A stretch of DNA of 47,048 bases from a virus. Its lineage: Duplodnaviria > Heunggongvirae > Uroviricota > Caudoviricetes. The position numbers and the translations under genes are program-made. The notes beneath the pieces were generated by a model. That model made no database searches. It had not been told where the DNA came from and saw nothing but the letters and a program-made list of their open reading frames with translations. Position 1 is the first letter of the stretch; each line of letters starts with the position of its first letter. This document shows positions 2,222-40,351 of the stretch, piece by piece. Where the stretch lies: the IMG/VR virus record IMGVR_UViG_2563366978_000001; one strand, 5' to 3'.

Positions 2222-3004
2222 CTATTTATTGGTGATTTCTGCTGGCTTTAGCTGCGCGGATAACTGCTCAAGTTTTTGAACTGCCAGTTCAAAATGCGCG
2301 GGTAACGCCTTTTCCAGATCAGAGTTAATATCGGTGATGGGTAAATCACCACACGACATACTCCGCCTACCCCCACGAACAACATCACGCAACAACTCTC
2401 GTTCATACGTGCGCATGTTCCCCAATGCCGACTCAGCAGCCGTCAAAATCCGGCGCAGTTCTGCCGTAATTGCTGGCAAATCATCAACCGTTATGGGGTT
2501 CGGGGATGGATTACGACACGCCCGACGCAAAGCTAACCATACACCGCTAATCCAGGCATTTCGGTACTGAAAACTTTGTGCTATATCGTTAATCAGCCCT
2601 CGCAGATACTCTTTCTGCCTCCAGTTCAACGGCTCCGCTGCTCGCATTGGCTCAGGCTCGATGTAAACGTACTCTCCATTTTTGCGAATAGAGGGCAAGA
2701 CTTCGTTCGTTACCCATTTGCGAAACCGCCAAGCTGTTGTGCCTTGCTTCACCGCGTCACGGCAGCGGAGGATCAGGGTGTATAGACCTGACTCTGAAAT
2801 AATATTTAGCTTTTGCTCTCCGCCAGGGGTGTAACTTAAAGTTACACCCTTTTCATCCTCATCCAGAGACATTAGCGCCTTCCGGGAATTAACGAGTCTT
2901 AAAGCATCACATACATCCTTAGCCACAAACCACGGCTCACCGTTAATCATCACTACACGAACCTGATGCTCTTCCTGAAAGGAAAAGACTGCTAACGCGC
3001 TCAT
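2222..3004 (-). CDS. Phage antirepressor-like protein (BRO-N type N-terminal domain), 260 aa
   Basis: N-terminus FSFQEEHQVRVVMINGEPWFVAKDVCDALRL resembles the BRO-N/antirepressor fold; last gene of a coupled operon. Confidence 0.7.
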   Translation of the reverse strand: MSALAVFSFQEEHQVRVVMINGEPWFVAKDVCDALRLVNSRKALMSLDEDEKGVTLSYTPGGEQKLNIISESGLYTLILRCRDAVKQGTTAWRFRKWVTNEVLPSIRKNGEYVYIEPEPMRAAEPLNWRQKEYLRGLINDIAQSFQYRNAWISGVWLALRRACRNPSPNPITVDDLPAITAELRRILTAAESALGNMRTYERELLRDVVRGGRRSMSCGDLPITDINSDLEKALPAHFELAVQKLEQLSAQLKPAEITNK

Positions 3005-3234
3005 TCAGCCTCCTTATCGCGCAGCAAGTGCGACGAGAGAGACGCAGAATATCCCTGTGCTTCATGCGTTAACTCACACGCAATCTGCAGAAGTTTTCCA
3101 GCCTCTGAGAGGTAAATCGACGCCTCACAACTGGAGACTGTCCGATGGGCTGATGATACGAGCGCATAGACCTGAGCCAGACGTTCATCCAACGATTCCA
3201 GCAGGCCAACAGTGTTCATTTTTACCTGATTCAT
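3001..3234 (-). CDS. Hypothetical 77-aa protein, translationally coupled (ATGA overlap) to the antirepressor gene
   Basis: ORF stop overlaps the downstream start by ATGA at 3001-3004. Confidence 0.55.
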   Translation of the reverse strand: MNQVKMNTVGLLESLDERLAQVYALVSSAHRTVSSCEASIYLSEAGKLLQIACELTHEAQGYSASLSSHLLRDKEAE

Positions 3235-3395
3235 GCAGCCACCTCGCGCACCGGAATACGGGCAGACAATACCAGGACAAACCGGCTGGCGAACTGGCGA
3301 CGAGCTTCCCGTTCAGATGACGCGATAGTGGAAAGATGATGAATGTGGGACTTTTTGTCTGTGCGAACGACTGCCGCAAATTTGAATTTGAACAT
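3231..3395 (-). CDS. Small 54-aa ORF (MFKFKFAAVVRTDKK...), first gene of the antirepressor operon; icd-like position
   Basis: Hand-translated; not in the ORF track (below 60 aa); GGAG RBS 9 nt upstream; ATGA overlap with the next gene at 3231-3234. Confidence 0.45.
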   Translation of the reverse strand: MFKFKFAAVVRTDKKSHIHHLSTIASSEREARRQFASRFVLVLSARIPVREVAA

Positions 3396-3404
3396 GGTAT
3401 GCAC

Positions 3405-3540
3405 TCCGTTTTATTGGTCGTGCTACCACCAGAGTTGCGAATCTCTTTATTGGTGGTAGCCCAGGCGGGGTTCGCAATACCGGTAAACGAAGAAACCGGC
3501 CCGACCGAAGTCAGCCCCACCTGAGCCACCATAATTCGGA
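3405..3540 (-). ncRNA. Candidate C4-type antisense regulatory RNA / structured leader upstream of the antirepressor operon
   Basis: GC-rich inverted repeats (GCTACCACC...GGTGGTAGC) immediately 5' of the first small ORF; by analogy with P1/N15 c4-icd-ant organisation; no homology check possible. Confidence 0.25.
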
Positions 3541-3694
3541 TATGCGCAGGTCTATACACACAAAAAAACACGCTGGCGCGTGTTGTGCGCTTCGTTTTGC
3601 CAGGATTGCGAAGTCCCGACTGCGGGATTTACCGCAGCGAGGTGACTTTACCTCCAAAACGACGCACACGTCAATAATTTGCAAAGACATTTTA

Positions 3695-3727
3695 CCCCGT
3701 GACCAGTCACGGGGACAGGTGTTTTTA
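3695..3727 (+). terminator. Hairpin CCCCGTGACCAGTCACGGGG followed by GTTTTTAT; intrinsic terminator, possibly bidirectional
   Basis: 8-9 bp GC-rich stem, T-tract on plus strand, A-rich on the other side; lies between the lipoprotein gene end and the antirepressor operon. Confidence 0.5.
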
Positions 3728-3775
3728 TAGTTTGCTTGAACAAACGATCAGAACATGAACAATGTTATTGTTCCG

Positions 3776-4588
3776 TTATAAGAAAGCCTCACGCGAACGG
3801 AACACCCACTCTAGCTGTACTGGATAAATTTCTCCCGTTTTAATATTTATTAGGCGCGCGGCTAATAACTCACCCATAAAAACCTGAGTTTTATGGCTCA
3901 TATCTGACGGGTTAAAAATAGTAGGTGATGTTATATCAATATGATTACTGCTTAACCCATTTATCTTTGCTAAATATTCAATTCTAAGGTCTTTTACATT
4001 AACATCTTTTGGTATTTGTCCTTTTATATCAATATCTGCCCATATTGTTTCAGGGTTCCCTTCATTTATTTGTGTACTACCAAAGATAATTTCGGCACCT
4101 AAAGTATTTAACACTTCTACATCAGCAGATATTCCAAAAGCATTAGCACCAACATAGCTTCCATGCTTTGTTATTTCAGAGGAATCGACATGAAAACCAT
4201 ACCATCCAGACATATCTCGAGATGTTATCACGCTATCACTACCGCTATTCTCAACAAAATCACGGTTAAGATATGTTCCTGAGTATGTGATACTTCTAGG
4301 GATAGACAAACCTTGAGATGTTAAAACGTTGTTGTATGGCGCGTATGTTAATGAGTGAACGACATATCCACGCCATGAACCATCATCTATCTTTGATGCA
4401 ATAATTCTATTAAATTCCTTACCTGTGAGTATTTTGCTGCTAAAATCACCAACAGAGTTGATAGGTACTCTTTTTTCTTTTTCGAATTTATACTCAACGT
4501 CCGTTGATGCCTTATTATCATATTGATAAGTGCATCCAGATAATAACAAGATAGAGAGTAATAAAGCTGTTGTTTTTTTGTTACGCAT
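3776..4588 (-). CDS. Lipoprotein, 270 aa (signal peptide with lipobox LLSGC)
   Basis: N-terminal MRNKKTTALLLSILLLSGC; AT-rich codon usage unlike the flanking backbone. Confidence 0.75.
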   Translation of the reverse strand: MRNKKTTALLLSILLLSGCTYQYDNKASTDVEYKFEKEKRVPINSVGDFSSKILTGKEFNRIIASKIDDGSWRGYVVHSLTYAPYNNVLTSQGLSIPRSITYSGTYLNRDFVENSGSDSVITSRDMSGWYGFHVDSSEITKHGSYVGANAFGISADVEVLNTLGAEIIFGSTQINEGNPETIWADIDIKGQIPKDVNVKDLRIEYLAKINGLSSNHIDITSPTIFNPSDMSHKTQVFMGELLAARLINIKTGEIYPVQLEWVFRSREAFL

Positions 4589-5598: not shown

Positions 5599-8500
5599 AG
5601 AAAGCGCCCTGCTCTTCGTAGCTGCATGAGCTATTCCCCGTAATGTATTCACGTAACCGCCGCAGCTCATTGCTGGAAAGGTGATCCATGAACTCTGTGA
5701 GGTACAGGGATGCAAACGTCATAGCTATGCTGGCTGATGACCATGATGACATAGTGGCCAACTCCTCACTGGAAAGCGCACTCATCGCCCAGGACTCAGG
5801 TACAGCCACTGGCAACACGGCCAAAGCCTCAGAAATTACTGAATGAGGGGCGTTTTGAACCTGCTCGTTTGTGGATCGCGTTTTATCATCCATATATATA
5901 TTGAGATCCAAATCGCGATCCATTTCGATGGCTGTCTTCTCGGCTTTACGCGTTTTTAGGGTTAGGCCATCTTTCTGACGCTGAACAAGAATATCCAGCA
6001 TAAATGCCGCTGATTCAGGCTCAACAAAACGCAAGGTTGGACGCTTATCGCCGTCTCTGCCGCGACGTTTACCTGTTTTAAGGCCAAGAGAGTCGCAAAT
6101 GTTTTTAAACAACGCTTCCGGCACTTTAGGCTTCCCTTTTGGCGTCATAAAACCACCAATGTGCAGAACGTTATTCAACAGGTCACGGCGTTCGGCTGTC
6201 ATGAGGTTATCTCGAGCGAATTTGAGACGCTCCTGAGTCGCCTCGCCGGTCATAGTCTCAGGGTTGATACCGCAGTCGATAAAGTACTGCCGGAGAGTTG
6301 CTGATTTAAGCGCATAGAAACCGCGCGCCCCGACTTCAACAGTAGGAGTAGCTTTTACCTTGTGATCGATTATTCCAGGGAATTTAGTTTTAAAGACATC
6401 ATCAGCCTGCTCGCGAGTCATCGCGGTCACTACAAAATATTGCCACTGTCCCGCCTGACGGTATGTGTAGGTAAAATTGATGGCTGCTTCTTCCCGGTCG
6501 TAACGACGAGCTGTTACCTCATCTAAAAGCATTGTTTCATAGCGGCGAACTTTGTCTCGAGCACCATCGAAATAGAATTTCAGCGTGCCTTCTTCAACCG
6601 GTAGTTTCAGTTCGTTTTCAATATCCCAGCGGACAAGTTTTGCCTGTTCTTCAAGCGTCAGCGCGCGTTTTTTTAGCAGTTCTTCACGCTCTGATTCTTG
6701 TGGTGTTTCTGTATTGAGGTGCAGATCCAGTGTCTGTTCCCACACAATATCCCGCGCTTCTTTACGCAGATCTTTACCGATATCATTCGCAGCATAATCG
6801 GTGGCCAGCGGTGATACCTTATAACCGTCGCTGTGCATGATGCAGATCATGTTGCTGGCGTAGTCGTTACGCGCAGTCGCTTCAATTGCGGCTGCTTTAA
6901 TTTTCATCCTGGTAAAGTCGGTATTGGCCACCCCCATTGATATACGGTCGCCATCGAAAACGACATCCGTAAGTTCACCGTTCATACCTGCGGTAGCAAG
7001 CAATGCCTGGGCGAATGCTCGTTCTATTTTTTGCGGGTCAGTTTCACGTTTTGCACGAGCTTTATCAAAGCCGATAATAAATTCTTTTGCTGTACGGTCG
7101 CGGCGTAGCATTTGCACTGCATCACTGGGTACAACTTCACCACAGAACATGCCGAAATGACGGTCAAAATGTTTTTGCTCAATCGACACGCCGGATGAAA
7201 TAGACGGGCTATAAATCAGGCCGTCGTATTTTTTGACCATCTTTTTCGGTTGATTGGTAAATGCTTCAACTTCTGGCTCTGGTTTGTTTTTCTGGTTTAC
7301 ACACAGAAATTTCTTACCAGGAAAATGCATTCTCAGGGTGGCTGTCACATCTTCTGCAAAGGTGGAGCTGTCGGTGGCCAACATGATTTTTTCGCCATCC
7401 GATACAGCTTTCACCACCTCGGTCATGATGCGATCTTTTTCTGTATAAAAAACCCGGATTGGCTCACCTGTTTCGCGGTTGCGAACATCAACAGGTAATT
7501 CAATTACGTGGATCTGCAGCCATGCCGGTAAACCTAGTTCTTCACGGCGTTTCATAGCCAGTTCAGCCAGGTCAACCAGCAGATCGTTCGCATCAGCATC
7601 CACCATGATTGGGTGTTGTTCCGTTCTGGCCAGCGCGTCAATTAGCGTATTGAATACAGCCACCGGGTTTTCCATAGCCCGACCGGAAAGAACGGCACGT
7701 AGCCCTTGTGTGGCCTCGTCAAAGCCAAAATAGTCGTGCTGGCGCATCAACGGTTGCCAGCAGTTTTTAACAATCGAGTTTATGCAGATGGTCAGTTTAC
7801 TGGCGTATGGAGCCATTTCCTGATAGCCAGGGTCCTGATAGTGCAGGATATCGGTTTTTACACCTTTTCCTTCTGTCATCATTTCCCACAGGCCACCAAT
7901 AAGGGAAACACGGTGAGCAACAGAGATACCACGTTCTGAGCTATGCATTAAAGGTCGTAACAATCCAGTAGATTTGCCGGAACCCATACCAGCACGAACG
8001 ATGACTATCCCCTGTAGTGATTGCACATACTTCAGGACGTCATCGGTCATTACCGAAGTTTCAAGACGCTTATAGGTGATATGTTGAGGACGTTTATTGG
8101 GATCAGTTATGCGTTCGCTGAATGAGCGCGGAGCCTGGGCAATACGGCACTTTTTATTCAGGCGACGGGCAATGTGGTCTTTTACCGTAGCGCGATAGAT
8201 ATTTTCCAGCCCCATTTCACGCAGAACGATGCAGAACATGTTAAATAAGTCTGACGGACTGTTAGGAACCGGACAGGTTAGCATGCCAATATCCACCGCT
8301 CTCAGCAGCTCTTTGGCAAAAGTACGACGGTTATCCCGCTTAATTGTCTTCAGGCGGTTGAGCGTCAGAGATAGCAAATCAGTGCCGGTTTTCAGGCGGT
8401 TTGCAGTTGCAAACAGTTGACGTGCTGTTTCACGAAGTCCACGCAGTTTGTGCAGGTCGTTGAAGTCACTGCACTCCATTTGCGGATCGTCTTCAAAAGT

Positions 8501-9586
8501 TGGATAGACGCAGCGGACATCGTTGAATTTCGATAAGATTTCATAGCCAGTCCGCAGGCCGGTATTCCCTTTTCCTTCTGTGGCTGATTTCCGGTCATTA
8601 TCCAGTGCGCAGGTGATTTTTGCCGCCGGGTACATGTTTACCAGTTGTTCCACAACATGAACCATGTTATTAGCGGATACAGCGACAACCACAGCGTCAA
8701 AGCGTTTATCTTTTTTCGTGGCAAGCCAGATGGATGCACCAGTAGCAAAACCTTCTGTAACAGCGATGTTTTGCGCCCCTTTTAGCTCACCGATAACAAA
8801 GCAGGCACCGACGAAATCGCCGCTGGTTACGGCGCTGGTCTGGTATTTTCCACCTTGTTTGTCGATTCGCTGCCAACCCACAATACGACCATCGTAACGA
8901 CCGTCCAGGTGAGCCAGAGGGATAGCCATATACGTGGTTGGCCCCCTGCTCCATTTTGCGCTGTCGTGACTGGTCACGCGACGCACATCACACGAATTAA
9001 AAACGTCACGAATACCTTTTTTAATCGCATATGGCCATGAGCCGTCTTCTGCAGGAGCATGTTCCCACGCGCTGTGGAATGCCAGCCATCCCAGCAAACG
9101 TTCATGGTCCATTTGGTTGTTTTTCAGGTCATTAATTCGTTTTTGTTCTTCACGGCGACGACGTGCTTCGGCCTGACGTTCTATTCTTGCCCGTTCTTCT
9201 TCCGGTTGTGCGACCACGGTCGCATTATTCCGTTGTTGCTCACGGCGATATTCAGAAAACAGGAAGGAGAAACCGCTCCATGAGCCAGCATCGCTGCCTT
9301 TATGGACGAAGTTAATGAACGGGTAATCAATCCCTTTGCTGTGTTCCAGCCGGGAGTAAATTTCTACGCGTCCTTTGAGGCTCTTTTCGAGAGCTTCTGG
9401 AGATGTTTTATTGTATGAAGAGTAACGCTCAACACCCCCGCGAGGGTTGAGTTGGATGTTGTCGGAACAGGCAGACCAGTTGATACCAGCCATCTGTGCC
9501 AGCTCGGTTAGTTCATCCCGTGCTGCTTCAATTAGCGAGAACGGATCGCTGCCAAAGCGATCCGCATAGAAATCGTTTAATGTCAT
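5591..9586 (-). CDS. repA: Replication protein RepA (primase-helicase), 1331 aa
   Basis: Single ORF of N15 RepA size (about 1324 aa from memory) in the N15 position between immunity region and telN side. Confidence 0.9.
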   Translation of the reverse strand: MTLNDFYADRFGSDPFSLIEAARDELTELAQMAGINWSACSDNIQLNPRGGVERYSSYNKTSPEALEKSLKGRVEIYSRLEHSKGIDYPFINFVHKGSDAGSWSGFSFLFSEYRREQQRNNATVVAQPEEERARIERQAEARRRREEQKRINDLKNNQMDHERLLGWLAFHSAWEHAPAEDGSWPYAIKKGIRDVFNSCDVRRVTSHDSAKWSRGPTTYMAIPLAHLDGRYDGRIVGWQRIDKQGGKYQTSAVTSGDFVGACFVIGELKGAQNIAVTEGFATGASIWLATKKDKRFDAVVVAVSANNMVHVVEQLVNMYPAAKITCALDNDRKSATEGKGNTGLRTGYEILSKFNDVRCVYPTFEDDPQMECSDFNDLHKLRGLRETARQLFATANRLKTGTDLLSLTLNRLKTIKRDNRRTFAKELLRAVDIGMLTCPVPNSPSDLFNMFCIVLREMGLENIYRATVKDHIARRLNKKCRIAQAPRSFSERITDPNKRPQHITYKRLETSVMTDDVLKYVQSLQGIVIVRAGMGSGKSTGLLRPLMHSSERGISVAHRVSLIGGLWEMMTEGKGVKTDILHYQDPGYQEMAPYASKLTICINSIVKNCWQPLMRQHDYFGFDEATQGLRAVLSGRAMENPVAVFNTLIDALARTEQHPIMVDADANDLLVDLAELAMKRREELGLPAWLQIHVIELPVDVRNRETGEPIRVFYTEKDRIMTEVVKAVSDGEKIMLATDSSTFAEDVTATLRMHFPGKKFLCVNQKNKPEPEVEAFTNQPKKMVKKYDGLIYSPSISSGVSIEQKHFDRHFGMFCGEVVPSDAVQMLRRDRTAKEFIIGFDKARAKRETDPQKIERAFAQALLATAGMNGELTDVVFDGDRISMGVANTDFTRMKIKAAAIEATARNDYASNMICIMHSDGYKVSPLATDYAANDIGKDLRKEARDIVWEQTLDLHLNTETPQESEREELLKKRALTLEEQAKLVRWDIENELKLPVEEGTLKFYFDGARDKVRRYETMLLDEVTARRYDREEAAINFTYTYRQAGQWQYFVVTAMTREQADDVFKTKFPGIIDHKVKATPTVEVGARGFYALKSATLRQYFIDCGINPETMTGEATQERLKFARDNLMTAERRDLLNNVLHIGGFMTPKGKPKVPEALFKNICDSLGLKTGKRRGRDGDKRPTLRFVEPESAAFMLDILVQRQKDGLTLKTRKAEKTAIEMDRDLDLNIYMDDKTRSTNEQVQNAPHSVISEALAVLPVAVPESWAMSALSSEELATMSSWSSASIAMTFASLYLTEFMDHLSSNELRRLREYITGNSSCSYEEQGAFYG
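5873..5922. other. Candidate replication origin inside the 3' part of repA: 8-bp inverted repeat GGATCGCG/CGCGATCC around an AT-rich core with three GATC sites
   Basis: Direct reading; N15-type origins are reported within the 3' part of repA (from memory). Confidence 0.3.
9209..9224. repeat. sopC-like palindrome TGCGACCACGGTCGCA (inside repA); putative centromere site
   Basis: 16-bp core of the palindrome family repeated five times in the window. Confidence 0.55.
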
Positions 9587-10492: not shown

Positions 10493-10741
10493 ATGAGATT
10501 TATTGCTTATAATAACCGCATGAAACCAGAAGAACTTATTCGCCACTTTGGCAGTGTAGAAAAAGCAGCGGCTGGGGTAGGTGTAACACCCGGTGCTGTT
10601 TACCAATGGTTAACCGCTGGAGAGATTCCTTCATTGCGGCAAAGTGATATTGAAGTTCGTACTGCTTACAAGCTGAAGAGTGACTTTACAACTCGGCGGG
10701 TAAAGCAGTCGATTAAGGAGAGCCGTAAGCGTGGAGCTTGA
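10493..10741 (+). CDS. cro: Cro-like small DNA-binding regulator (start may be the second ATG at 10520)
   Basis: Small basic ORF divergent from the repressor; HTH-like GVGVTPGAVYQWL. Confidence 0.75.
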   Translation: MRFIAYNNRMKPEELIRHFGSVEKAAAGVGVTPGAVYQWLTAGEIPSLRQSDIEVRTAYKLKSDFTTRRVKQSIKESRKRGA

Positions 10742-11441
10742 GTATATACGCAGCTGCGTCTCCACGGCATTGGCTGATATTCATTATCGCCAGCGTGGCA
10801 TCCTAGAGGTCCAGCTTGAGCAGATGCGTCTAGGCAGATCAGGACGCTTTAACAATAAACCAGTCCGGTCAATCAGTGTAGGTGATGATAACTCATACGA
10901 AGTGTCCGTTCCTGCTGAGCCGGTTAGATTCCACCAGGGGAAAACATTTAAACAATCATCAATGTTGCTCACTGATATTGATTTTCAGAGCGCCAGCTGG
11001 CGCAGGGCTATTGGTCAGTTGAATAACGAGGAATCAGCTTGGCTTTATTATTGCTACGGATGCAAGCCTGATTACAACAATGATGTGATTGTTTGTCAGT
11101 GGTTATGGCTTGATTTTCTGGTTGCTCATTCGGGGGGCGGCTTTAAAAAAATGAAGGCCTCCACGAAAAAAGCCATGCGGAAATTGATTTATTACGCGGC
11201 ACAGCAGGTTAAATCAGAACTTACGTGTGCTGAGGCAGTTGATGAGAGAGAACAGGACAGGCATCTGAGTTTTCTACTGAATATATCTATTGATAGCTGG
11301 AGACAAGATTATAAAGAACGCTGGCTTTTAATTAAGTCGCGATGTCTGAGCTTAAATCGAACTGCATTATTAAATGCGGCGGAGAAGCGCAGTGAAATCA
11401 TCAAACGCCATCGGGCAGGAAGTGCCATTCTGCCTTTGTAA
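10731..11441 (+). CDS. Hypothetical protein, 236 aa, in the position of the N15 Q-like late regulator
   Basis: ORF directly downstream of cro; function inferred from position only. Confidence 0.5.
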   Translation: MELEYIRSCVSTALADIHYRQRGILEVQLEQMRLGRSGRFNNKPVRSISVGDDNSYEVSVPAEPVRFHQGKTFKQSSMLLTDIDFQSASWRRAIGQLNNEESAWLYYCYGCKPDYNNDVIVCQWLWLDFLVAHSGGGFKKMKASTKKAMRKLIYYAAQQVKSELTCAEAVDEREQDRHLSFLLNISIDSWRQDYKERWLLIKSRCLSLNRTALLNAAEKRSEIIKRHRAGSAILPL

Positions 11442-11445
11442 ACAA

Positions 11446-11694
11446 GTTATGTTCAGGAAACCGTCGAAGCCAGAATTAAGGTATTCGGGGGTAAGAAATG
11501 AATATGTTATCTGGTGTCCAACTTGTGGTTACAGGACACGACCAGATAGTAATAAGCAGTCTGTAATTGCCGATTGGTATTTATCAAATCAGCCAGGTAA
11601 TAAGCATATAGAAAATCTTTGGATTAAGCGTTACTTGGAAATCAGAGAGGGTGCGACCGTGGTCGCACAAGAAAATGAAAATAACGCCATTTAA
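11446..11694 (+). CDS. Small Cys-containing protein (CPTCGY motif), about 82 aa
   Basis: In-frame ATG after the upstream stop; contains one centromere-like palindrome at its 3' end. Confidence 0.45.
   Translation, partial: VMFRKPSKPELRYSGVRNEYVIWCPTCGYRTRPDSNKQSVIADWYLSNQPGNKHIENLWIKRYLEIREGATVVAQENENNAI
11651..11668. repeat. sopC-like palindrome GTGCGACCGTGGTCGCAC; putative centromere site
   Basis: 18-bp palindrome, 8-bp arms with 2-bp centre. Confidence 0.65.
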
Positions 11695-15771: not shown

Positions 15772-16059
15772 TCAATAGACGGCATTAATATTAATCGTTG
15801 CACCGCATGCTTGGGCATATTTTGATAAAGTTTTCATGCTTGCCCCTAAAGGATTGCTTTCCAGGCGGCTGATAGCTGACGGGCGCAATCCCATTCGTTC
15901 AGCCAGAGCTGACTTCGTTAAACCTGCTCTTTCCCTCATTTCGTATAACATTTCGACCATCTCCAGCTCTTTATCGGCCTCTTCATATCCTTTGATGGCT
16001 TCTGGAGTGTTGAGAAGTTTTTCTTTTACTTCGTTAAACGGGATGCCTTTCGCTTTCAT
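15772..16059 (-). CDS. HTH (XRE-family) antitoxin, HigA-like, 95 aa
   Basis: C-terminal HTH; overlaps the upstream toxin gene at 16059. Confidence 0.7.
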   Translation of the reverse strand: MKAKGIPFNEVKEKLLNTPEAIKGYEEADKELEMVEMLYEMRERAGLTKSALAERMGLRPSAISRLESNPLGASMKTLSKYAQACGATININAVY

Positions 16060-16370
16060 CAGTTCATCTCCTTCAGGCGAGTTCTGGCGATTTCGATAGC
16101 CTTCACCGGTGTTTTCTGTGTCTTTTTTACAAATGCATGCAATAGATAAATTTCGTTACCAGTCGCGTAGGCGTACAGCGTTCTTGCGATGTTTTTATCC
16201 CCTACTCGTAGTTCAAAAAGCCCTCCACCTATTACACGGCTATGGGGCATCTTCAGTTTGTTGCCTTCCTTCTCCAGTCGCTCAATTAATCTGGTCATGC
16301 GACCTCGCAAATCATCTGGTAGTTCAAGCAGTTCATCCAGTGCTGCAGGGTGGGTTATCACGTTAAACAT
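16059..16370 (-). CDS. RelE/ParE-superfamily toxin, HigB-like, 103 aa
   Basis: Small basic protein upstream of the HTH antitoxin in toxin-first (HigBA) order. Confidence 0.65.
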   Translation of the reverse strand: MFNVITHPAALDELLELPDDLRGRMTRLIERLEKEGNKLKMPHSRVIGGGLFELRVGDKNIARTLYAYATGNEIYLLHAFVKKTQKTPVKAIEIARTRLKEMN

Positions 16371-16446: not shown

Positions 16447-16517
16447 AATAACACTGGATGTGTTCGTTTGGCAGAGTTACAGTTCGTGTCATTGAGGGGC
16501 AATAACCCACTAACTAT

Positions 16518-16757
16518 ATGAATTTGGAGGATATTATGAATTATCAAGGTAACGAAAAAATGCGCGACGACGTTGCGGAGATAGCTAACGAACTGTATGA
16601 GTTGTGGCAGAAGGTTGAACGTTTCGAAAAGGAATATGGTTTCAACAGTACCAACCTGGCAGACCGACTGGCTGGTCGCTTAGTTGGGACTATGGGGCCA
16701 AAACTGGCTGAGTTGAACCGCTTTATGGCTGATGTTGATTTCCAGTTTCAAGATTGA
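16518..16757 (+). CDS. Hypothetical protein, 79 aa
   Basis: ORF with RBS GGAGGA. Confidence 0.5.
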   Translation: MNLEDIMNYQGNEKMRDDVAEIANELYELWQKVERFEKEYGFNSTNLADRLAGRLVGTMGPKLAELNRFMADVDFQFQD

Positions 16758-16770
16758 TTAGAGAGGCGTT

Positions 16771-16998
16771 ATGAATATTAATGAAATTCGTGGAAATATG
16801 ACTGAAGCGGCCCTGAGTGTGGAATGTGTTATGCGTGGATACCCACGCATTTCCCTGAAAGAGTTAAGCGAAGCCTGTTTTTTGAGTCAAGCTGCCGTTG
16901 AATTTATCATCGAACAGATGATCTGTTTTGGGGTTGCAAAGCGTAGCGGGTCTGGTCGATATTCTTTGACCGATGAATATAAGCAGGCAACTTTCTAA
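16771..16998 (+). CDS. Hypothetical protein, 75 aa
   Basis: ORF with RBS GAGAGG. Confidence 0.5.
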   Translation: MNINEIRGNMTEAALSVECVMRGYPRISLKELSEACFLSQAAVEFIIEQMICFGVAKRSGSGRYSLTDEYKQATF

Positions 16999-17001
16999 AA
17001 A

Positions 17002-17023
17002 CTGTGCGACCACGGTCGCACAG
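17002..17023. repeat. sopC-like palindrome CTGTGCGACCACGGTCGCACAG; putative centromere site
   Basis: 22-bp palindrome just upstream of the candidate late promoter region. Confidence 0.65.
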
Positions 17024-17107
17024 CACAAAAACGAAAAAGCTTGGCAAAATTACGGTTTTTAGTTATTGTTTTGTTAAGTTGGGTTTTTTGTACCCAACAG
17101 CCAACAA

Positions 17108-17131
17108 GCCGCCTTTATGGCGGTTTTTTTG
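17108..17131 (+). terminator. Intrinsic terminator (GCCGCC-TTTAT-GGCGG then T7); candidate tR'-like terminator of a short leader transcript
   Basis: Stem-loop plus 7-T tract about 60 nt downstream of a putative promoter (TTGGCA-17-TATTGT). Confidence 0.45.
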
Positions 17132-17265
17132 TGCCTGAAAAGTGGGCGCAGGACAAGTTGCAGCTTGTCCTGCGGTCAACCCATGCCAGAGCTATAGGCT
17201 GAACCTAAAGCCCACCCGCGATGCGCATCGCCGGGTTAGCTTACCCAGGCAAAAAAATAATAGCT

Positions 17266-18342
17266 ATGTTCAAAACCACTAATATTCATGGCGCGCAACT
17301 CGTTTGCGCAGATTCTCTGCAATTTATCAAAACCATCCCTGATAACTCGGTCAATTTGATTGCAACAGACCCACCATACTTCGGCGTAAAGGCTAACGCA
17401 TGGGATAACCAGTGGGATAGCGATGCTGACTTTTTGGGGTGGATTGATGAATTTTTGGCAGAATTTTGGCGGATATTGGCCCCTAATGGCAGCCTGTATA
17501 TGTTTACCGGCTCTCGCCTTGCGTCAAAAATTGAATTATTAACTCGCGACCGTTTCAATGTTCTGAACCATATCATTTGGGCTAAACCCAGTGGTATGTG
17601 GCGCGGTTGTCATAAAGAAAGTTTAAGGGCTTATTTTCCTGCCACTGAAAGAATATTATTTGCAGAGCATTACGGCGCGTCAGGTTATGCTAAAGGTCAG
17701 TCAGGTTATGCTTCAAAATGTGCAGATTTAAGAAAAAATATTTTTTCTCCACTAATTGATGCTTTTTCGCTGGCTCGCCGTCAGTTAGATATATCAGCCG
17801 CAGACATTAATTCAGCAACAGGAAAGCAGATGTGTTCGCACTGGTTTTCTTATTCGCAGTGGCGGCTTCCATCATTAAGTGATTTTAATAAACTATGCGA
17901 ATTATTTCGCAGGAAGGCAGATTCACTCGGTGTCCCGTGTCCATATCCTTTTAATGTTGATTATTCAGAACATGAAAAGCGTTATAGCGATCTGAAATTG
18001 CGTTATGAGGAAGTAAAGAAGCAGTATGATGATTTGAAGGCTCAGTATGAAAATTTGCGCCGCCCATTTCATGTTACTGCTGATGTACCTTATACCGATG
18101 TATGGGAGTTTCCTCCTGTGCAATATTATCCTGGCAAGCACCCATGTGAAAAACCTGCAGCGATGATGGAACATATTATAAAAAGTAGTTCCCGCCCCGG
18201 AGATATCGTTGCCGATTTCTTTATGGGATCAGGCTCTACTATTAAAGCCGCGCTGAAGTTAGGTCGTCAGGCAATCGGTATTGAGATTGAGGGTGAACGT
18301 TATCTTCAGACAGTTGATGAAGTGAAAAAGTTATTTGAGTAA
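17266..18342 (+). CDS. DNA methyltransferase (DPPY motif; N6-adenine or N4-cytosine class), about 358 aa, no adjacent restriction enzyme
   Basis: Motif IV ATDPPYFG before motif I FFMGSGST; start taken at the internal ATG 17266, the track ORF starts at 17221. Confidence 0.75.
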   Translation: MFKTTNIHGAQLVCADSLQFIKTIPDNSVNLIATDPPYFGVKANAWDNQWDSDADFLGWIDEFLAEFWRILAPNGSLYMFTGSRLASKIELLTRDRFNVLNHIIWAKPSGMWRGCHKESLRAYFPATERILFAEHYGASGYAKGQSGYASKCADLRKNIFSPLIDAFSLARRQLDISAADINSATGKQMCSHWFSYSQWRLPSLSDFNKLCELFRRKADSLGVPCPYPFNVDYSEHEKRYSDLKLRYEEVKKQYDDLKAQYENLRRPFHVTADVPYTDVWEFPPVQYYPGKHPCEKPAAMMEHIIKSSSRPGDIVADFFMGSGSTIKAALKLGRQAIGIEIEGERYLQTVDEVKKLFE

Positions 18343-18437
18343 CTGAAGAATATATTCCCCTGCCGTTTTTGATGGGGTTATTTCTCGCCGTATAGTTTCC
18401 AAGCCGAAACCTCAGCAACTATTGCGAGGTAAGAGAT

Positions 18438-18710
18438 ATGAAGATGGATGAACGATACAGCAGCGCATCTTATGGTAGTGCTGGTCTTACTGCGTTCTTT
18501 GCCAGCCTGTCATTGCAGGATTGGGGCTTCATTATCGGTGTCGCGTTCAGCATTATCCTCGGTGTACTTACATACCGGCTCAATAAACGCGAGCAGATGA
18601 AGCGCACGAAGATATTGCAGGACATATTGGATAAAACTGATGCCAATAATATTTCCGCCACGGCGATGGTTATTGGTGAATTGGGAAAGAGAGCACCGAA
18701 GGAAATATGA
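18438..18710 (+). CDS. S: Holin (pinholin, S21-like) with dual-start MKM motif
   Basis: Small two-TM protein resembling phage 21 S (from memory); precedes a SAR endolysin. Confidence 0.75.
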
Positions 18711-19207
18711 TGCAGTCATCATTACGCAAAGCTGTCGCAACTGCTATTGGTGGCGGGGCTATTGCCATAGCATCTGTGCTCATCTCTGGTCCGAGCGGCA
18801 ACGATGGTCTGGAAGGTGTGAGACATAACCCCTACAAAGACATCGTTGGTGTATGGACTGTATGTTACGGGCATACAGGAAAAGACATTATGCTCGGTAA
18901 AACGTATACCGAAGCAGAATGCAAAGCTCTCCTGAATAAAGACCTTGCTACTGTCGCCAGACAAATTAACCCGTACATCAAAGTCGATATACCGGAAACA
19001 ACGCGTGGTGCTCTTTACTCGTTCGTTTACAACGTGGGTGCAGGCAATTTCAGAACATCGACACTTCTTCGCAAAATCAACCAGGGCGATATCAAAGGTG
19101 CATGTGATCAACTACGTCGCTGGACATATGCTGGCGGCAAGCAATGGAAAGGGCTGATGACTCGCCGTGAGATTGAGCGTGAAGTCTGTTTGTGGGGGCA
19201 GCAATGA
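18707..19207 (+). CDS. R: SAR endolysin (lysozyme, R21-like)
   Basis: N-terminal Gly/Ala-rich signal-anchor ([19 protein letters not shown]) and near-identity to my memory of phage 21 R. Confidence 0.85.
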
Positions 19208-19671
19208 GCAGAGTAACCGCAATTATCTCCGCACTGGTTATCTGCATCATCGTCTGCCTGTCGTGGGCTGTTAATCATTACCGTGATAACGCCATCGCCT
19301 ACAAAGAACAGCGTGATAAAAAAGTCAGTGAGCTGAAGCAGGCGACCGCCACCATCGCTGACATGCAGCAGCGTCAGCGTGATGTTGCTGCGCTCGATGC
19401 AAAATACACGAAGGAGTTGGCTGATGCGAAAGCTGAAAATGATGCTCTTCGGCGCAAGCTTGATAATGGTGGTCGGGTGCTCGTCAAAGGAAAATGCTCT
19501 GTGCCATCCTCAGCCGAAACCTCCAGCGCCTCCGGCATGGGCAATGATGCCACCGTCGAACTCTCTCCAGTTGCTGGACGAAACGTTCTCGGTATCCGGG
19601 ACGGAATCATCAGAGACCAGACAGCACTGAGAACGCTTCAGGAATACATCAAGACGCAATGCCCGAATTAA
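19204..19671 (+). CDS. Rz: Rz i-spanin
   Basis: N-terminal TM, coiled-coil, position after the endolysin; contains an embedded Rz1 frame. Confidence 0.75.
19424..19630 (+). CDS. Rz1: Rz1 o-spanin lipoprotein embedded in the +1 frame of Rz
   Basis: RBS AAGGAG then ATG; signal peptide with lipobox VVGC; Pro-rich mature part. Confidence 0.7.
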
Positions 19672-20024: not shown

Positions 20025-20042
20025 AAATCTCTTTGTTTCTCG

Positions 20043-20062
20043 TGTGCGACCGTGGTCGCACA
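20043..20062. repeat. sopC-like palindrome TGTGCGACCGTGGTCGCACA; putative centromere site
   Basis: 20-bp palindrome. Confidence 0.65.
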
Positions 20063-20262
20063 TTAAATACCGCGCTGCATCGTCGCCGTATTTCCGCATT
20101 AACCATGACCGTAGCCCGACGGGGAACTCCTCTGCGCGAGTGTGCGGAAATAATCAAAAACGATGCACACCGGGTTTTTACCGCGCTAATGATTCGCGGG
20201 TTTGTCCCTCATGCTCGCCAGTCCTGTGCGAGGGTGGAAGAAACAGGGCATGTATTCAGGAG

Positions 20263-20282
20263 CGTGCGACCGTGGTCGCACG
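20263..20282. repeat. sopC-like palindrome CGTGCGACCGTGGTCGCACG; putative centromere site
   Basis: 20-bp palindrome. Confidence 0.65.
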
Positions 20283-20304
20283 GTATCTTTGTCAGGAGGT
20301 TTTG

Positions 20305-20619
20305 ATGAAAGAGTTGCAAAAAATTAATTCAATAATGGAAAGGTTAAGTGCTCTTGAGCGTAAGCTGGACGATTGTGGAAAGCTGTGTGTTGAAAAGCAA
20401 AATGAGCTTTACCGGGAATTTTTTACAATCGTAAGTGAGCTGATGCCAATTGTTAATAACTGCCTGATGACATCCAGATTTTTTAATGTCGATGCTACTA
20501 CATCCAGAAAATTTTCTGTGAAAATTCAAGAAAGGGTTTCTGGTAGTGTGACAAGAGAGATGGCTGAACAGTTGGTGGCAATGAGCAATAAAACAAAAAG
20601 AAAAAAGCATTGCTTGTAA
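20305..20619 (+). CDS. Hypothetical protein, about 104 aa, AT-rich moron just upstream of cos
   Basis: RBS AGGAGG then ATG at 20305; the upstream part of the track ORF covers the centromere palindromes. Confidence 0.45.
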   Translation: MKELQKINSIMERLSALERKLDDCGKLCVEKQNELYREFFTIVSELMPIVNNCLMTSRFFNVDATTSRKFSVKIQERVSGSVTREMAEQLVAMSNKTKRKKHCL

Positions 20620-20720
20620 CAGCAAATCAGCTTTCAGGGCGCGTTGACTTTCAGGTGTTGCGGCATGCAGATGATAATTATTATCATTGCGGGTCCTTTC
20701 CAGTGATCCGACAGGTTACG

Positions 20721-20732
20721 GGGCGGAAGGCG
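20721..20732. other. cos: cosN cohesive-end site, predicted 12-nt overhang GGGCGGAAGGCG, flanked by lambda-like cosQ/cosB
   Basis: Flanking sequence matches my memory of lambda cos; the 12-mer differs from lambda GGGCGGCGACCT at 5 positions. Confidence 0.7.
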
Positions 20733-20909
20733 CGCGGGTTTTCGCTATTTATGAAAATTTTCCGGTTTAAGGCGTTTCCGTTCTTCTTCTCCGTAACTTA
20801 ATGTTTTTATTTAAAACACCCCCTGAAAAGAAAGGAAACGACAGGTGCTGAAAACAGGCCTTTTGGCCTCTGTCGTTTCCTTTCTCTGTTTTTATCCGTG
20901 GAATGAACA

Positions 20910-40341: not shown

Positions 40342-40351
40342 TGGAGTGGAT

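Follow-up and report, generated by a model that had tools for sequence, protein, structure and literature searches.

Chromatin footprinting and RNA engineering both make wide use of M.EcoGII. In experiments, M.EcoGII, ARM81ld_p56 and OS31_p25, three divergent natural members of the family, show no or extremely relaxed sequence specificity, with ARM81ld_p56 being without sequence specificity and OS31_p25 being relaxed as judged by an endonuclease-protection assay (PMC7556043). The purified ancestors of the family all methylate both DNA and RNA, with a DNA activity that varies little and in bulk resembles that of M.EcoGII (the data on Anc250 being bulk activity), and for the ancestors Anc291 and SUPREM no sequence motif was found on RNA (PMC11551740). 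The recognition domain of M.EcoGII is a four-helix bundle with a helix-turn-helix, and the charged linker that is present in M.EcoGII is missing from the site-specific M.PflMI, its nearest site-specific relative, at 27% identity (PMC11551740). It is noted that M.EcoGII stays silent in the lysogen that carries it, that its constitutive expression is deleterious (PMC5778455), and that the role proposed for the family is anti-restriction (PMC5778455, PMC11551740).

The stretch of DNA analysed here (the window, 47,048 nucleotides) is a whole N15-like linear plasmid-prophage, with the protelomerase at one end and SopBA at the other. Its methyltransferase gene is an intact, full-length member of the M.EcoGII family. 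The gene as such is already known: N15 gene 52 and phiKO2 gp52 are its orthologs, and it is called 'DNA methylase' in records that are 100% identical to the window. The gene and the parts of its product are the following.

17266-18342, plus strand: methyltransferase, beta-class N6-adenine DNA enzyme of the M.EcoGII family, N15 gp52 ortholog (homology, Pfam, AF2 model)
17368-17379, plus strand: catalytic motif IV DPPY, aa 35-38 (sequence; invariant in 59 homologs)
17707-17928, plus strand: target-recognition domain, a helical bundle with helix-turn-helix, aa 148-221 (AF2 helices, invariant columns)
17962-18057, plus strand: long charged helical linker, aa 233-264, EKRYSDLKLRYEEVKKQYDDLKAQYENLRR (AF2 helix 233-264)
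18217-18240, plus strand: SAM-binding motif I FFMGSGST, aa 318-325 (read in the sequence; in RsrI and M.BceJIV it aligns with motif I)

The reading frame starts at ATG 17266 and ends at TAA 18340-18342, giving 358 aa. A longer frame from ATG 17221, giving 373 aa, is also open; the shorter form is preferred because the N-terminus of M.EcoGII, an expressed enzyme, and the phage homologs align from its residue 1, which is the alignment start for M.EcoGII, N15, phiKO2, PY54, SfV and P27. The start codon has no Shine-Dalgarno sequence, while by contrast a GAGG ribosome-binding site serves the holin. Relative to N15 the gene is under purifying selection, with pN=0.11 and saturated synonymous sites; due to this saturation dN/dS is not computable and pN and pS are given alone, and the saturation implies an old allele and no recent copy. 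All residues that are invariant across 59 family members are kept, and the protein cluster to which the product belongs has 574 member sequences.

The protein matches Pfam PF01555 (N6_N4_Mtase) with E=1.2e-46 and 159.9 bits against a cut-off of 26.7, and the order of motif IV, recognition domain and motif I places it in the beta class. Thus the claim in an earlier note on this DNA that the methyltransferase is of DPPY type is confirmed by the motif at aa 35-38, the PF01555 match and the intact ORF. The AF2 model (pLDDT 82.8) has recognition-domain helices at 148-174, 178-185, 190-194 and 204-221, and the domain contains the motif HWF..QW.LP, invariant in the family. The linker helix is rich in K, E, R and D and has a weak leucine-zipper-like Pfam match at aa 240-265; further downstream, HPCEKP is found at aa 292-297. 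The best Foldseek matches of the model are CcrM, M.BceJIV, MboIIA and RsrI (E from 1e-15 to 1e-11), and the PDB sequence matches to these same four span the two Rossmann halves only. Membership of the Dam type (alpha-class, GATC) was considered and rejected, as no match was found and PF01555 is the sole Pfam class matched, and the NCBIfam equivalogs for the specific enzymes YhdJ and CcrM gave scores far under the cut-offs. Judging from these motifs and matches, the protein is a beta-class adenine methyltransferase, predicted to move a methyl group from SAM to the N6 of adenine.

Over its full length the protein has 56% identity and 70% similarity to M.EcoGII (E=1e-143), 69% identity to the resurrected ancestor Anc250 and 56% identity to ARM81ld_p56 of phage phiARM81ld, where the sequences of M.EcoGII and of the ancestors were machine-read from a PDF and contain a few reading errors, but are in close agreement with phage 1720a-02 in the alignment. 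This full-length similarity is far above the level of M.PflMI and thus places the protein within the M.EcoGII family; moreover, the four recognition-domain helices are present in the AF2 model, as is the charged helical linker. Since it is a full-length member of this family, sequence-independent m6A methylation is likely, and it is expected that its adenine targets are most probably chosen with little or no sequence preference. In the earlier note the target specificity was said to be unknown, which was too pessimistic: via the M.EcoGII family it can be narrowed to probable non-specific adenine methylation.

By contrast, the enzyme might be a sequence-specific orphan adenine methyltransferase, with a Dam-like or other motif, that guards against particular systems or serves phage gene regulation or replication. 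Changes in methyltransferase specificity usually map to the recognition domain, which here is the most divergent part of the protein (47% identity to that of M.EcoGII and 71% to that of N15); the first linker has 28% identity to that of M.EcoGII. Thus at 56% overall and 47% recognition-domain identity the specificity of this enzyme could differ from that of M.EcoGII. Homologs are also named 'DNA adenine methylase', 'dam' or 'site-specific DNA-methyltransferase', but these names come from automatic annotation, and the protein is of the beta class rather than the Dam family, far under the cut-offs of the YhdJ and CcrM models. Moreover, the family-invariant residues of the recognition domain and the charged linker are kept, and all experimentally tested members and ancestors of the family are non-specific or very relaxed. 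We therefore regard a sequence-specific enzyme as unlikely, although it is the strongest of the competitors to non-specific methylation.

The methyltransferase is an orphan. It had been described as such before, and the endonuclease check has now been run: with Pfam and PADLOC no restriction endonuclease or other defence protein, the methyltransferase aside, was found among the scanned non-structural ORFs of the whole plasmid-prophage, where a few small ORFs match no family. A Type II restriction-modification system was rejected on the same Pfam and PADLOC scan, which gave no cognate endonuclease among the non-structural ORFs, either adjacent or elsewhere on the element. Note also that no second methyltransferase resembling N15 gp58 was found in the window by tblastn. 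The earlier suggestion that the gene gives anti-restriction protection to progeny DNA matches the function proposed in the literature for the family (PMC5778455, PMC11551740), and as a role of this particular gene we retain it as probable. Weighing against it, an insertion mutant of the methylase ORF62 of P840, a PY54-like phage, shows normal lysis and lysogeny on a permissive host (PMC10612081). It is also noted that broad m6A could lay the phage open to methylation-dependent nucleases.

The signals and genes around the methyltransferase are the following.

10731-11441, plus strand: Q-type antiterminator gene, N15 gene 40 homolog, presumed late-operon activator (PF06323 Phage_antiter_Q, E=2e-84)
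16771-16998, plus strand: gene of a small winged-helix protein, N15 gp51 homolog (phiKO2 gp51 is annotated as winged helix-turn-helix)
17004-17021, no strand: 18-bp palindrome GTGCGACCACGGTCGCAC, homolog of the N15 centromere site IR3, SopB-binding in N15 (N15 alignment)
17041-17069, plus strand: putative late promoter, TTGGCA, 17 nt spacer, TATTGT (promoter scan)
17106-17132, plus strand: intrinsic terminator, 8-bp stem with 5 GC pairs and T-run (terminator scan)
17129-17265, plus strand: conserved structured RNA leader, about 140 nt (conservation, fold, covariation)
18357-18386, plus strand: weak hairpin with T-rich tail in the gap between methyltransferase and holin (sequence reading)
18438-19671, plus strand: lysis cassette of holin, endolysin and Rz (ORFs; annotation of PhiR46_1 and YDC107_1)

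The methyltransferase is the first gene past the putative Q-dependent late promoter and the terminator, and it is directly followed by the holin (18438-18710), the endolysin (18707-19207) and Rz (19192-19671); it occupies the same position in eight other phages, Stx phages among them. The gene had been placed at the head of the late/lysis region, and this is where it lies. It is immediately 5' of the holin in N15, phiKO2, PY54, SfV, phiARM81ld and Vibrio ST2-1pr, while in P27 and 1720a-02 it stands just after Q and before stx. YDC107_1 lists the product of the Q gene as a Q family protein. The putative late promoter, with 9/12 matches to sigma-70 in the promoter scan, aligns with the -35/-10 signals annotated in N15 and with the 'putative late promoter' of phiKO2, and the terminator at 17106-17132 aligns with terminators annotated in both phages. 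This terminator can be likened to lambda tR', which implies that it would end a short promoter-proximal transcript and that read-through would be needed for the methyltransferase. The late promoter, the Q-dependence and the read-through are thus putative, based on annotation and analogy. At the equivalent of 18357-18386 a terminator is annotated in N15, phiKO2 and SfV, although the terminator scan did not call it in the window. The palindrome at 17004 lies about 20 bp upstream of the putative late promoter and belongs to a family with copies at 9207, 11651, 17004, 20044 and 20264; the N15 IR3 oligonucleotide (PMC7205306, Table 4) is the aligned N15 sequence, and at this place phiKO2 has the annotation 'putative plasmid partitioning site'. 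The gp51 homolog has 28% identity to SfV orf47 (pairwise E=8e-4), and a gp51-like or orf47-like ORF stands 5' of the leader in 119/140 distinct contexts.

Immediately 5' of the methyltransferase start codon lies the structured RNA leader, with helices P1 (17143-17146/17180-17183), P2 (17147-17157/17164-17174), P3 (17185-17187/17197-17199), P5 (17208-17211/17239-17242) and P6 (17215-17221/17228-17235). It is about 95% identical to N15 in spite of the synonymous saturation in the gene next to it, and its fold has a z-score of -5.4. When 44 leaders were simply aligned with MAFFT, RNAalifold gave no more than a single invariant long-range helix of 5 bp; this poor yield arises because the variable hairpins are misaligned, and covariance-model alignments with controls and a hand-mapped structure were therefore used. 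The covariation is strong. When 41 sequences are fitted to the model, 91.7% of the aligned cells are paired and compensatory change occurs in 20/25 pairs; cells changed on both sides number 180, as compared with 58 for shuffles and no more than 37 for slid controls, while with the structure mapped by hand on the MAFFT alignment P1 is 98% paired and P5 96%. The leader occurs nearly always with the methyltransferase family: among the IMG/VR pattern matches, 119/121 have a methyltransferase 20-30 nt downstream. A genome-wide pattern scan (596 Gb) gave 34 matches with no methyltransferase downstream, of which 33 belong to unrelated phyla, fail the covariance model and are about as many as chance would give for so loose a pattern; the remaining one, in Erwinia psidii, is a genuine leader with no methyltransferase downstream.

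A coding role for the leader was rejected: indels of 1-2 nt among relatives show that neither ORF 17041-17202 nor ORF 17142-17282 is conserved, and a zinc-finger pattern is missing from both. No internal promoter was called in the leader by the promoter scan. No Rfam 15 family matched the leader region at the gathering threshold, and in permissive scans of window 16900-17400 and SfV 2900-3560 the matches touching the leader were weak and far below gathering scores, with the best ones spanning the terminator region only. Elsewhere in the window the Rfam matches are C4 and isrK only, and ARAGORN found no tRNA in the window. Searches of the literature returned no described leader of this kind and no biochemistry of N15 gp52.

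Per-sequence folding gives, in most leaders, an alternative hairpin close to the start codon, with an energy weakly better than that of shuffles (mean z -1.2), and we put it forward as a hypothesis. We infer that the leader probably gates the synthesis of the toxic enzyme. More tentatively, and as something that we think quite possible though short of probable, the leader may represent an undescribed cis-regulatory RNA class dedicated to M.EcoGII-family genes and acting as a translation switch for the toxic enzyme. In such a switch, the 5' UGGGC would pair with either of two GCCCR segments, the alternative to P1 being a distal pairing of 17143-17147 with 17210-17214, and the 3' strand of P5 would pair either within P5 or with a segment beside the start codon, in the latter case as a hairpin of 17237-17241 with 17262-17266. 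The signal for the switch might be the enzyme itself, the small winged-helix protein that occurs alongside, or a metabolite, for instance SAM or SAH.

Taken together, we propose the following scheme. Transcription from the late promoter, expected to start near 17076, would in the lysogen stop at the terminator 17106-17132, keeping the potentially toxic enzyme off, and the SopB-bound centromere site beside the promoter may add silencing. Upon induction, RNA polymerase modified by Q would pass the terminator, and the enzyme would then be produced together with the lysis and packaging proteins. The replicating phage DNA would become broadly methylated, so that the progeny would arrive in a new host with resistance to many Type I, II and III restriction systems already in place. 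The structured leader, lying between the terminator and the start codon with no Shine-Dalgarno sequence, would probably add post-transcriptional control of the amount of enzyme. We consider the scheme as a whole, i.e., an active orphan beta-class enzyme of the M.EcoGII family that is made as first late gene under leader control and puts broad m6A on the progeny, to be likely.

An alternative to late production is a low-level expression in the lysogen from the plasmid-prophage, marking or protecting plasmid or host DNA in an epigenetic or establishment role. This would suit N15-like prophages, which are extrachromosomal and able to pass between hosts, and it is noted that terminators leak and that the promoter, with its 9/12 matches, resembles a constitutive sigma-70 promoter. 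However, the gene stands behind a strong terminator, with no Shine-Dalgarno sequence and with a structured leader; the methylation by M.EcoGII is undetectable in its lysogen and the enzyme is harmful if expressed (PMC5778455); and integrating phages, too, keep the gene at the head of their lysis genes. Expression in the lysogen is thus improbable in our estimate, and late production is preferred.

It may also be asked whether the physiological substrate is RNA, of host or phage transcripts, with the methylation of DNA being a side activity. To our knowledge, m6A has no known function in bacterial mRNA. M.EcoGII and the ancestors do methylate RNA in vitro, and the gene bears a structured RNA leader, but the DNA activity of M.EcoGII is about 90-fold above its RNA activity (Table S3, PMC11551740) and the authors of that work regard DNA as the relevant substrate, which makes RNA as the main substrate very improbable. 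Finally, the idea that the gene has become an inactive remnant and travels with the lysis module is hardly credible, with nothing specific in its favour besides a start codon that has no Shine-Dalgarno sequence, and with the intact ORF, the full set of catalytic and SAM-binding motifs, the purifying selection relative to N15 and the large protein cluster noted above standing against it.

N15 and phiKO2 gp52, which have long been annotated, are now tied to M.EcoGII, and it is predicted that the virion DNA of telomere phages is heavily m6A-modified. The methyltransferase itself is one more member of a known family, for which little changes. If the proposal on the leader is true, a dedicated RNA element would be present in hundreds of prophages, Stx-converting ones included, which would explain part of the silencing of M.EcoGII, and the leader would offer a compact natural control device.

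It is useful to compare the locus with the known systems. M.EcoGII resembles the window enzyme in the beta-class motif order, the helical-bundle recognition domain with helix-turn-helix and the charged helical linker, and it is likewise prophage-borne and orphan. The gene of 1720a-02, very similar to M.EcoGII, lies directly after Q and is preceded by the same structured leader (L003 5859-6003). By contrast, 44% of the residues differ between the window protein and M.EcoGII, more so in the recognition domain and the first linker, and the window protein has a 9-aa insertion after the recognition domain; moreover, the window element is a linear plasmid-prophage whereas that of M.EcoGII is an integrated lambdoid prophage. 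Enzymes of the Hia5 type are also phage-associated and probably represent a lineage different from the M.EcoGII family. As described in PMC7556043, which cites Drozdz et al. 2012, Hia5 and related enzymes of Haemophilus and Neisseria are non-specific m6A methyltransferases.

The telomere-phage orthologs N15 gp52 and phiKO2 gp52, both putative adenine methylases, have 84% and 62% identity to the window protein, respectively, and the layout is the same, with gp50, gp51, centromere site, late promoter, terminator, leader, methyltransferase and holin; N15 differs in carrying a C5-cytosine methyltransferase (gene 58), which is missing from the window phage. ARM81ld_p56 of the Aeromonas linear plasmid-prophage phiARM81ld and OS31_p25 of Serratia phage OS31 belong to the same family and are located directly before the holin. 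In phiARM81ld a Com-like zinc-finger ORF lies between the leader and the methyltransferase, overlapping the start of the latter, while it is absent from the window, where no small ORF with the CxxC...CxxC pattern of a Mu Com-type regulator was found in 17000-17300. In Mu com-mom, a late DNA-modification gene is gated translationally, with RNA structure near the start codon. In outline, and by analogy only, the locus would work like this system, with a late and potentially toxic adenine modification under control at multiple layers and an RNA structure close to the start codon. Mu Mom, however, does not belong to the methyltransferases and has no sequence relationship to the window enzyme, and the leader described here, with about 140 nt and five helices, is much larger than, and unrelated to, the translation-inhibition stem of mom.

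The ORF at 17266-18342 (+) encodes a protein of 358 aa that matches Pfam PF01555 (N6_N4_Mtase) with E=1.2e-46. DPPY stands at aa 35-38, HPCEKP at aa 292-297 and FFMGSGST at aa 318-325, a motif order that, as judged from the sequence, is that of the beta class; the methyltransferase noticed here earlier is thus borne out. An alignment that includes M.EcoGII and eleven homologs from phages favours the start at 17266 over the upstream ATG at 17221. A PDB sequence search returns RsrI, M.BceJIV, M1.HpyAVI, MboIIA and CcrM, with the matches confined to the Rossmann domain, spanning both of its halves and leaving aa ~113-247 uncovered. The AlphaFold2 model (pLDDT 82.8) has a split Rossmann fold, with four helices within aa 148-221 and a single long helix at 233-264, and is grouped by Foldseek with CcrM, M.BceJIV, MboIIA and RsrI. 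Relative to N15, pN of the gene is 0.11 with synonymous sites saturated, so the protein is under purifying selection. Note also that N15 gene 52 is given in RefSeq as 285 aa with the start at 41621, which cuts off DPPY; the intact ORF of 362 aa begins at 41387, and its alignment to the window protein runs from residue 1 (6001-7089 in our N15 locus, L004, from NC_001901, being 41387-42475 of the record).

By tblastn against phage genomes, the window protein is 84% identical to the product of N15 gene 52, 80% to the homolog of Enterobacter phage MStein, 62% to phiKO2 gp52, 59% to that of PY54 gene 60 and 55-58% to those of many Stx-converting and other lambdoid phages (P27, SfV, mEp460, 1720a-02), the 1720a-02 enzyme being, according to Murray et al., very similar to M.EcoGII (PMC5778455). 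With the M.EcoGII sequence machine-read from the supplement of the SUPREM paper (PMC11551740), which contains a few obvious reading errors and agrees closely with 1720a-02, the comparison from end to end gives 56% identity and 70% similarity, while the identity to the reconstructed ancestor Anc250 is 69%. By region, the identity to M.EcoGII is 65% and 69% in the N-terminal and C-terminal halves of the Rossmann domain, 47% in the recognition domain, where every family-invariant residue is retained, and 45% in the helical linker. At E<=1e-20 the M.EcoGII-type family numbers 3,285 clusters. M.EcoGII methylates adenines irrespective of their context (PMC5778455); ARM81ld_p56, encoded by a different linear plasmid-prophage, is without sequence specificity, and with OS31_p25 DNA is protected against six unrelated m6A-sensitive enzymes (PMC7556043). 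All of the purified ancestors along the path from M.EcoGII towards M.PflMI act as methyltransferases on DNA as well as RNA and differ little in bulk DNA activity, and M.PflMI, the closest site-specific enzyme, has only 27% identity to M.EcoGII and is without the charged linker (PMC11551740). The window protein, by its sequence, falls well within the non-specific group and has the charged linker, from which the best prediction is a non-specific or very relaxed m6A activity. The target specificity, taken as unknown in the earlier note, can therefore be replaced by a predictable one. As the family is characterised and the gene itself already carries an annotation, the gene alone is of low interest.

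The features of the window that are referred to below are as follows.

149-2050: protelomerase, the first gene in the window
3449-3536 (-): C4 antisense RNA (Rfam, 82 bits), adjoining the Ash and Bro-N genes
3563-3638 (-): isrK-like RNA (Rfam, 53 bits), adjoining the Ash and Bro-N genes
9207-9224, 11651-11668, 17004-17021, 20044-20061 and 20264-20281: palindrome GTGCGACC(A/G)(C/T)GGTCGCAC, five copies, four of them perfect
10731-11441: Q antiterminator
15772-16370 (-): Gp49 (HigB/RelE-like) toxin and HTH_3 antitoxin pair, homologs of N15 genes 48 and 49
16771-16998 (+): winged-helix gene of the gp51/orf47 type
17041-17069: putative sigma-70-like promoter
17106-17132: predicted strong intrinsic terminator
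40844-41322 (+): degenerate 21-nt (7-aa) tandem repeats within a 793-aa ORF (40346-42727), presumably a tail-fibre gene

With the protelomerase, a RepA-type primase, the cB repressor, Q, genes for a lambda-like head and tail, and SopB/SopA at the end opposite the protelomerase, the gene content indicates that the window is a complete N15-like linear plasmid-prophage. Over 16500-19300 the window shares 100% identity with Escherichia phage YDC107_1 (genus Ravinvirus) and 99.8% with PhiR46_1 of E. coli ECOR13; the methyltransferase region is found in 16 of 5,426 complete E. coli genomes, with all 16 copies on plasmids (46-75 kb among the matches listed). The C4 and isrK-like RNAs together with Ash/Bro-N form a secondary immunity (antirepressor) locus as is typical in P1 and N15. 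The stretch 20025-20900, from the DUF4406 gene to the small terminase subunit, differs from N15 in having no homologs of gp56, gp58 and gp59, and differs from PhiR46_1 as well; it holds one unassigned ORF and two centromere-like palindromes 220 bp apart. A 25-nt inverted repeat (20829-20885), possibly cos-related, lies immediately before Nu1.

Scanned with Pfam and PADLOC, the non-structural ORFs over the whole element match Q, an exonuclease, DUF977, Ea22, DUF551, the Gp49/HTH pair, DUF4406, TelN, Bro-N, Ash and SopA/B, and no restriction-system nuclease. N15 gene 58, a second (C5-cytosine) methyltransferase, has no counterpart found in the window, and the window protein is the sole DNA methyltransferase found on the element. 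The methyltransferase is an orphan, as the earlier note had it; that note is correct in its observation and mostly right in its interpretation. CTGCAG occurs 37 times and GAATTC once over the 47 kb. The toxin-antitoxin pair is encoded on the other strand, ~0.9 kb 5' of the methyltransferase.

Upstream of the gene the order is gp50 homolog, gp51 homolog, the 18-bp palindrome 17004-17021, promoter, terminator, methyltransferase. The annotated -35/-10 signals and terminator of N15 align with the promoter and terminator, and the annotated "partitioning site / putative late promoter / terminator" of phiKO2 aligns with the upstream elements. In N15, phiKO2, PY54, SfV, phiARM81ld and a Vibrio phage the family member lies immediately 5' of the holin, in agreement with the place at the head of the late region, with the lysis genes, assigned before; in P27 and 1720a-02 it directly follows Q and precedes the stx genes. 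That the methyltransferase comes first in the late transcript is conserved in the family. On the analogy of lambda pR'/tR', and given that M.EcoGII is reported to be silent and toxic (PMC5778455), we infer that the gene would be off in the lysogen and would be switched on late by Q-dependent read-through. The short promoter-proximal transcript 17076-17132 (+), in the same position as the lambda pR'-tR' short RNA, has a weak likeness to Rfam RF02891 (listed as AgrB; 27 bits, gathering score 40), and a possible connection with AgvB, the prophage anti-sRNA, is a guess. The five palindromes are SopB-binding centromere sites of N15-type plasmids, compared with four (IR1-4) in N15. That at 17004-17021, the homolog of IR3, is ~20 bp upstream of the putative late promoter, so the partition complex might influence late and methyltransferase transcription.

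More than the methyltransferase gene, the part worth follow-up is the leader RNA (17129-17265, +) directly 5' of the ATG. The 134 nt from terminator to ATG are ~95% identical to N15, despite the saturated synonymous sites in the gene, and they fold much better than their shuffles do (z=-5.4). A covariance model built on six telomere phages places the leader directly 5' of the methyltransferase start in ~60 of 91 loci, including the lambdoid phages SfV, P27 and 1720a-02. In the model-fitted alignment of 41 distinct sequences, where the fitting biases the alignment towards the model structure, 91.7% of cells are paired, 20 of 25 pairs have a compensatory change, and both-side changes number 180 cells versus 58 in shuffles (0 of 500 reaching 180) and at most 37 with slid partners. 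In the model-independent MAFFT alignment, helix P1 is 98% paired, every variation being a change to a G-U wobble, and in helix P5 the paired fraction is 96%, with compensatory changes in 14 cases. Scanning IMG/VR with a pattern of sequence alone gives 121 matches, 119 with the methyltransferase 20-30 nt downstream and two at contig ends. Among GTDB representative genomes, 46 matches, nearly all in Enterobacterales, have a methyltransferase downstream (23-24 nt past the pattern in 45), and 34 have none, 33 of these being in unrelated phyla with no covariance-model match, as chance predicts. The remaining match, the only leader found without a methyltransferase downstream, is in an Erwinia psidii locus, apparently a decayed prophage, where an orf47-like gene and a genuine leader (79 bits with model R2) occupy 3655-4007. 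No Rfam 15 family matches the leader, and no description of it was found in the literature. The leader is a conserved, covarying structured RNA of ~140 nt tied almost exclusively to M.EcoGII-family genes in telomere and lambdoid phages.

No Shine-Dalgarno is present at the methyltransferase start, unlike at the holin of the same element. The invariant 5' UGGGC can base-pair either with a GCCCR nearby (P1) or with an identical, more distal GCCCA that overlaps P5; in phiARM81ld, the one lineage with an altered 5' strand (GUGGC), both partners become GCCAC. The 3' strand of P5 also has a possible alternative partner within ~25 nt of the AUG, and in the window this pairing (17237-17241 with 17262-17266) would extend over the first base of the AUG. 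These two alternative pairings suggest that the leader is a switch. A start-proximal hairpin of this kind is present in most leaders but is only weakly better than shuffles, and a T-run lies at most 25 nt upstream of the leader in 101 of 147 contexts. We favour the reading that the leader would gate the toxic enzyme post-transcriptionally.

Two types of small ORF lie beside the leader in relatives.

Locus L007, 3157-3351: winged-helix gene of the gp51/orf47 type
Erwinia psidii locus L216, 3655-3864: winged-helix gene of the same type
phiARM81ld locus L009, 3335-3550: Mu Com-like zinc-finger ORF
Locus L010, about 3340-3474: Mu Com-like zinc-finger ORF

The winged-helix ORF (64-75 aa, window copy included) is found with the leader in 119 of 140 distinct contexts and, in lambdoid phages, ends ~24 nt before it; its product could be a regulator of the leader-methyltransferase cassette. 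In phiARM81ld and a Vibrio phage, the leader precedes the Com-like ORF, which lies between leader and methyltransferase and overlaps the methyltransferase start. This arrangement in the Aeromonas/Vibrio relatives recalls the com-mom system of Mu and hints, by analogy, at translational activation of the kind known there.
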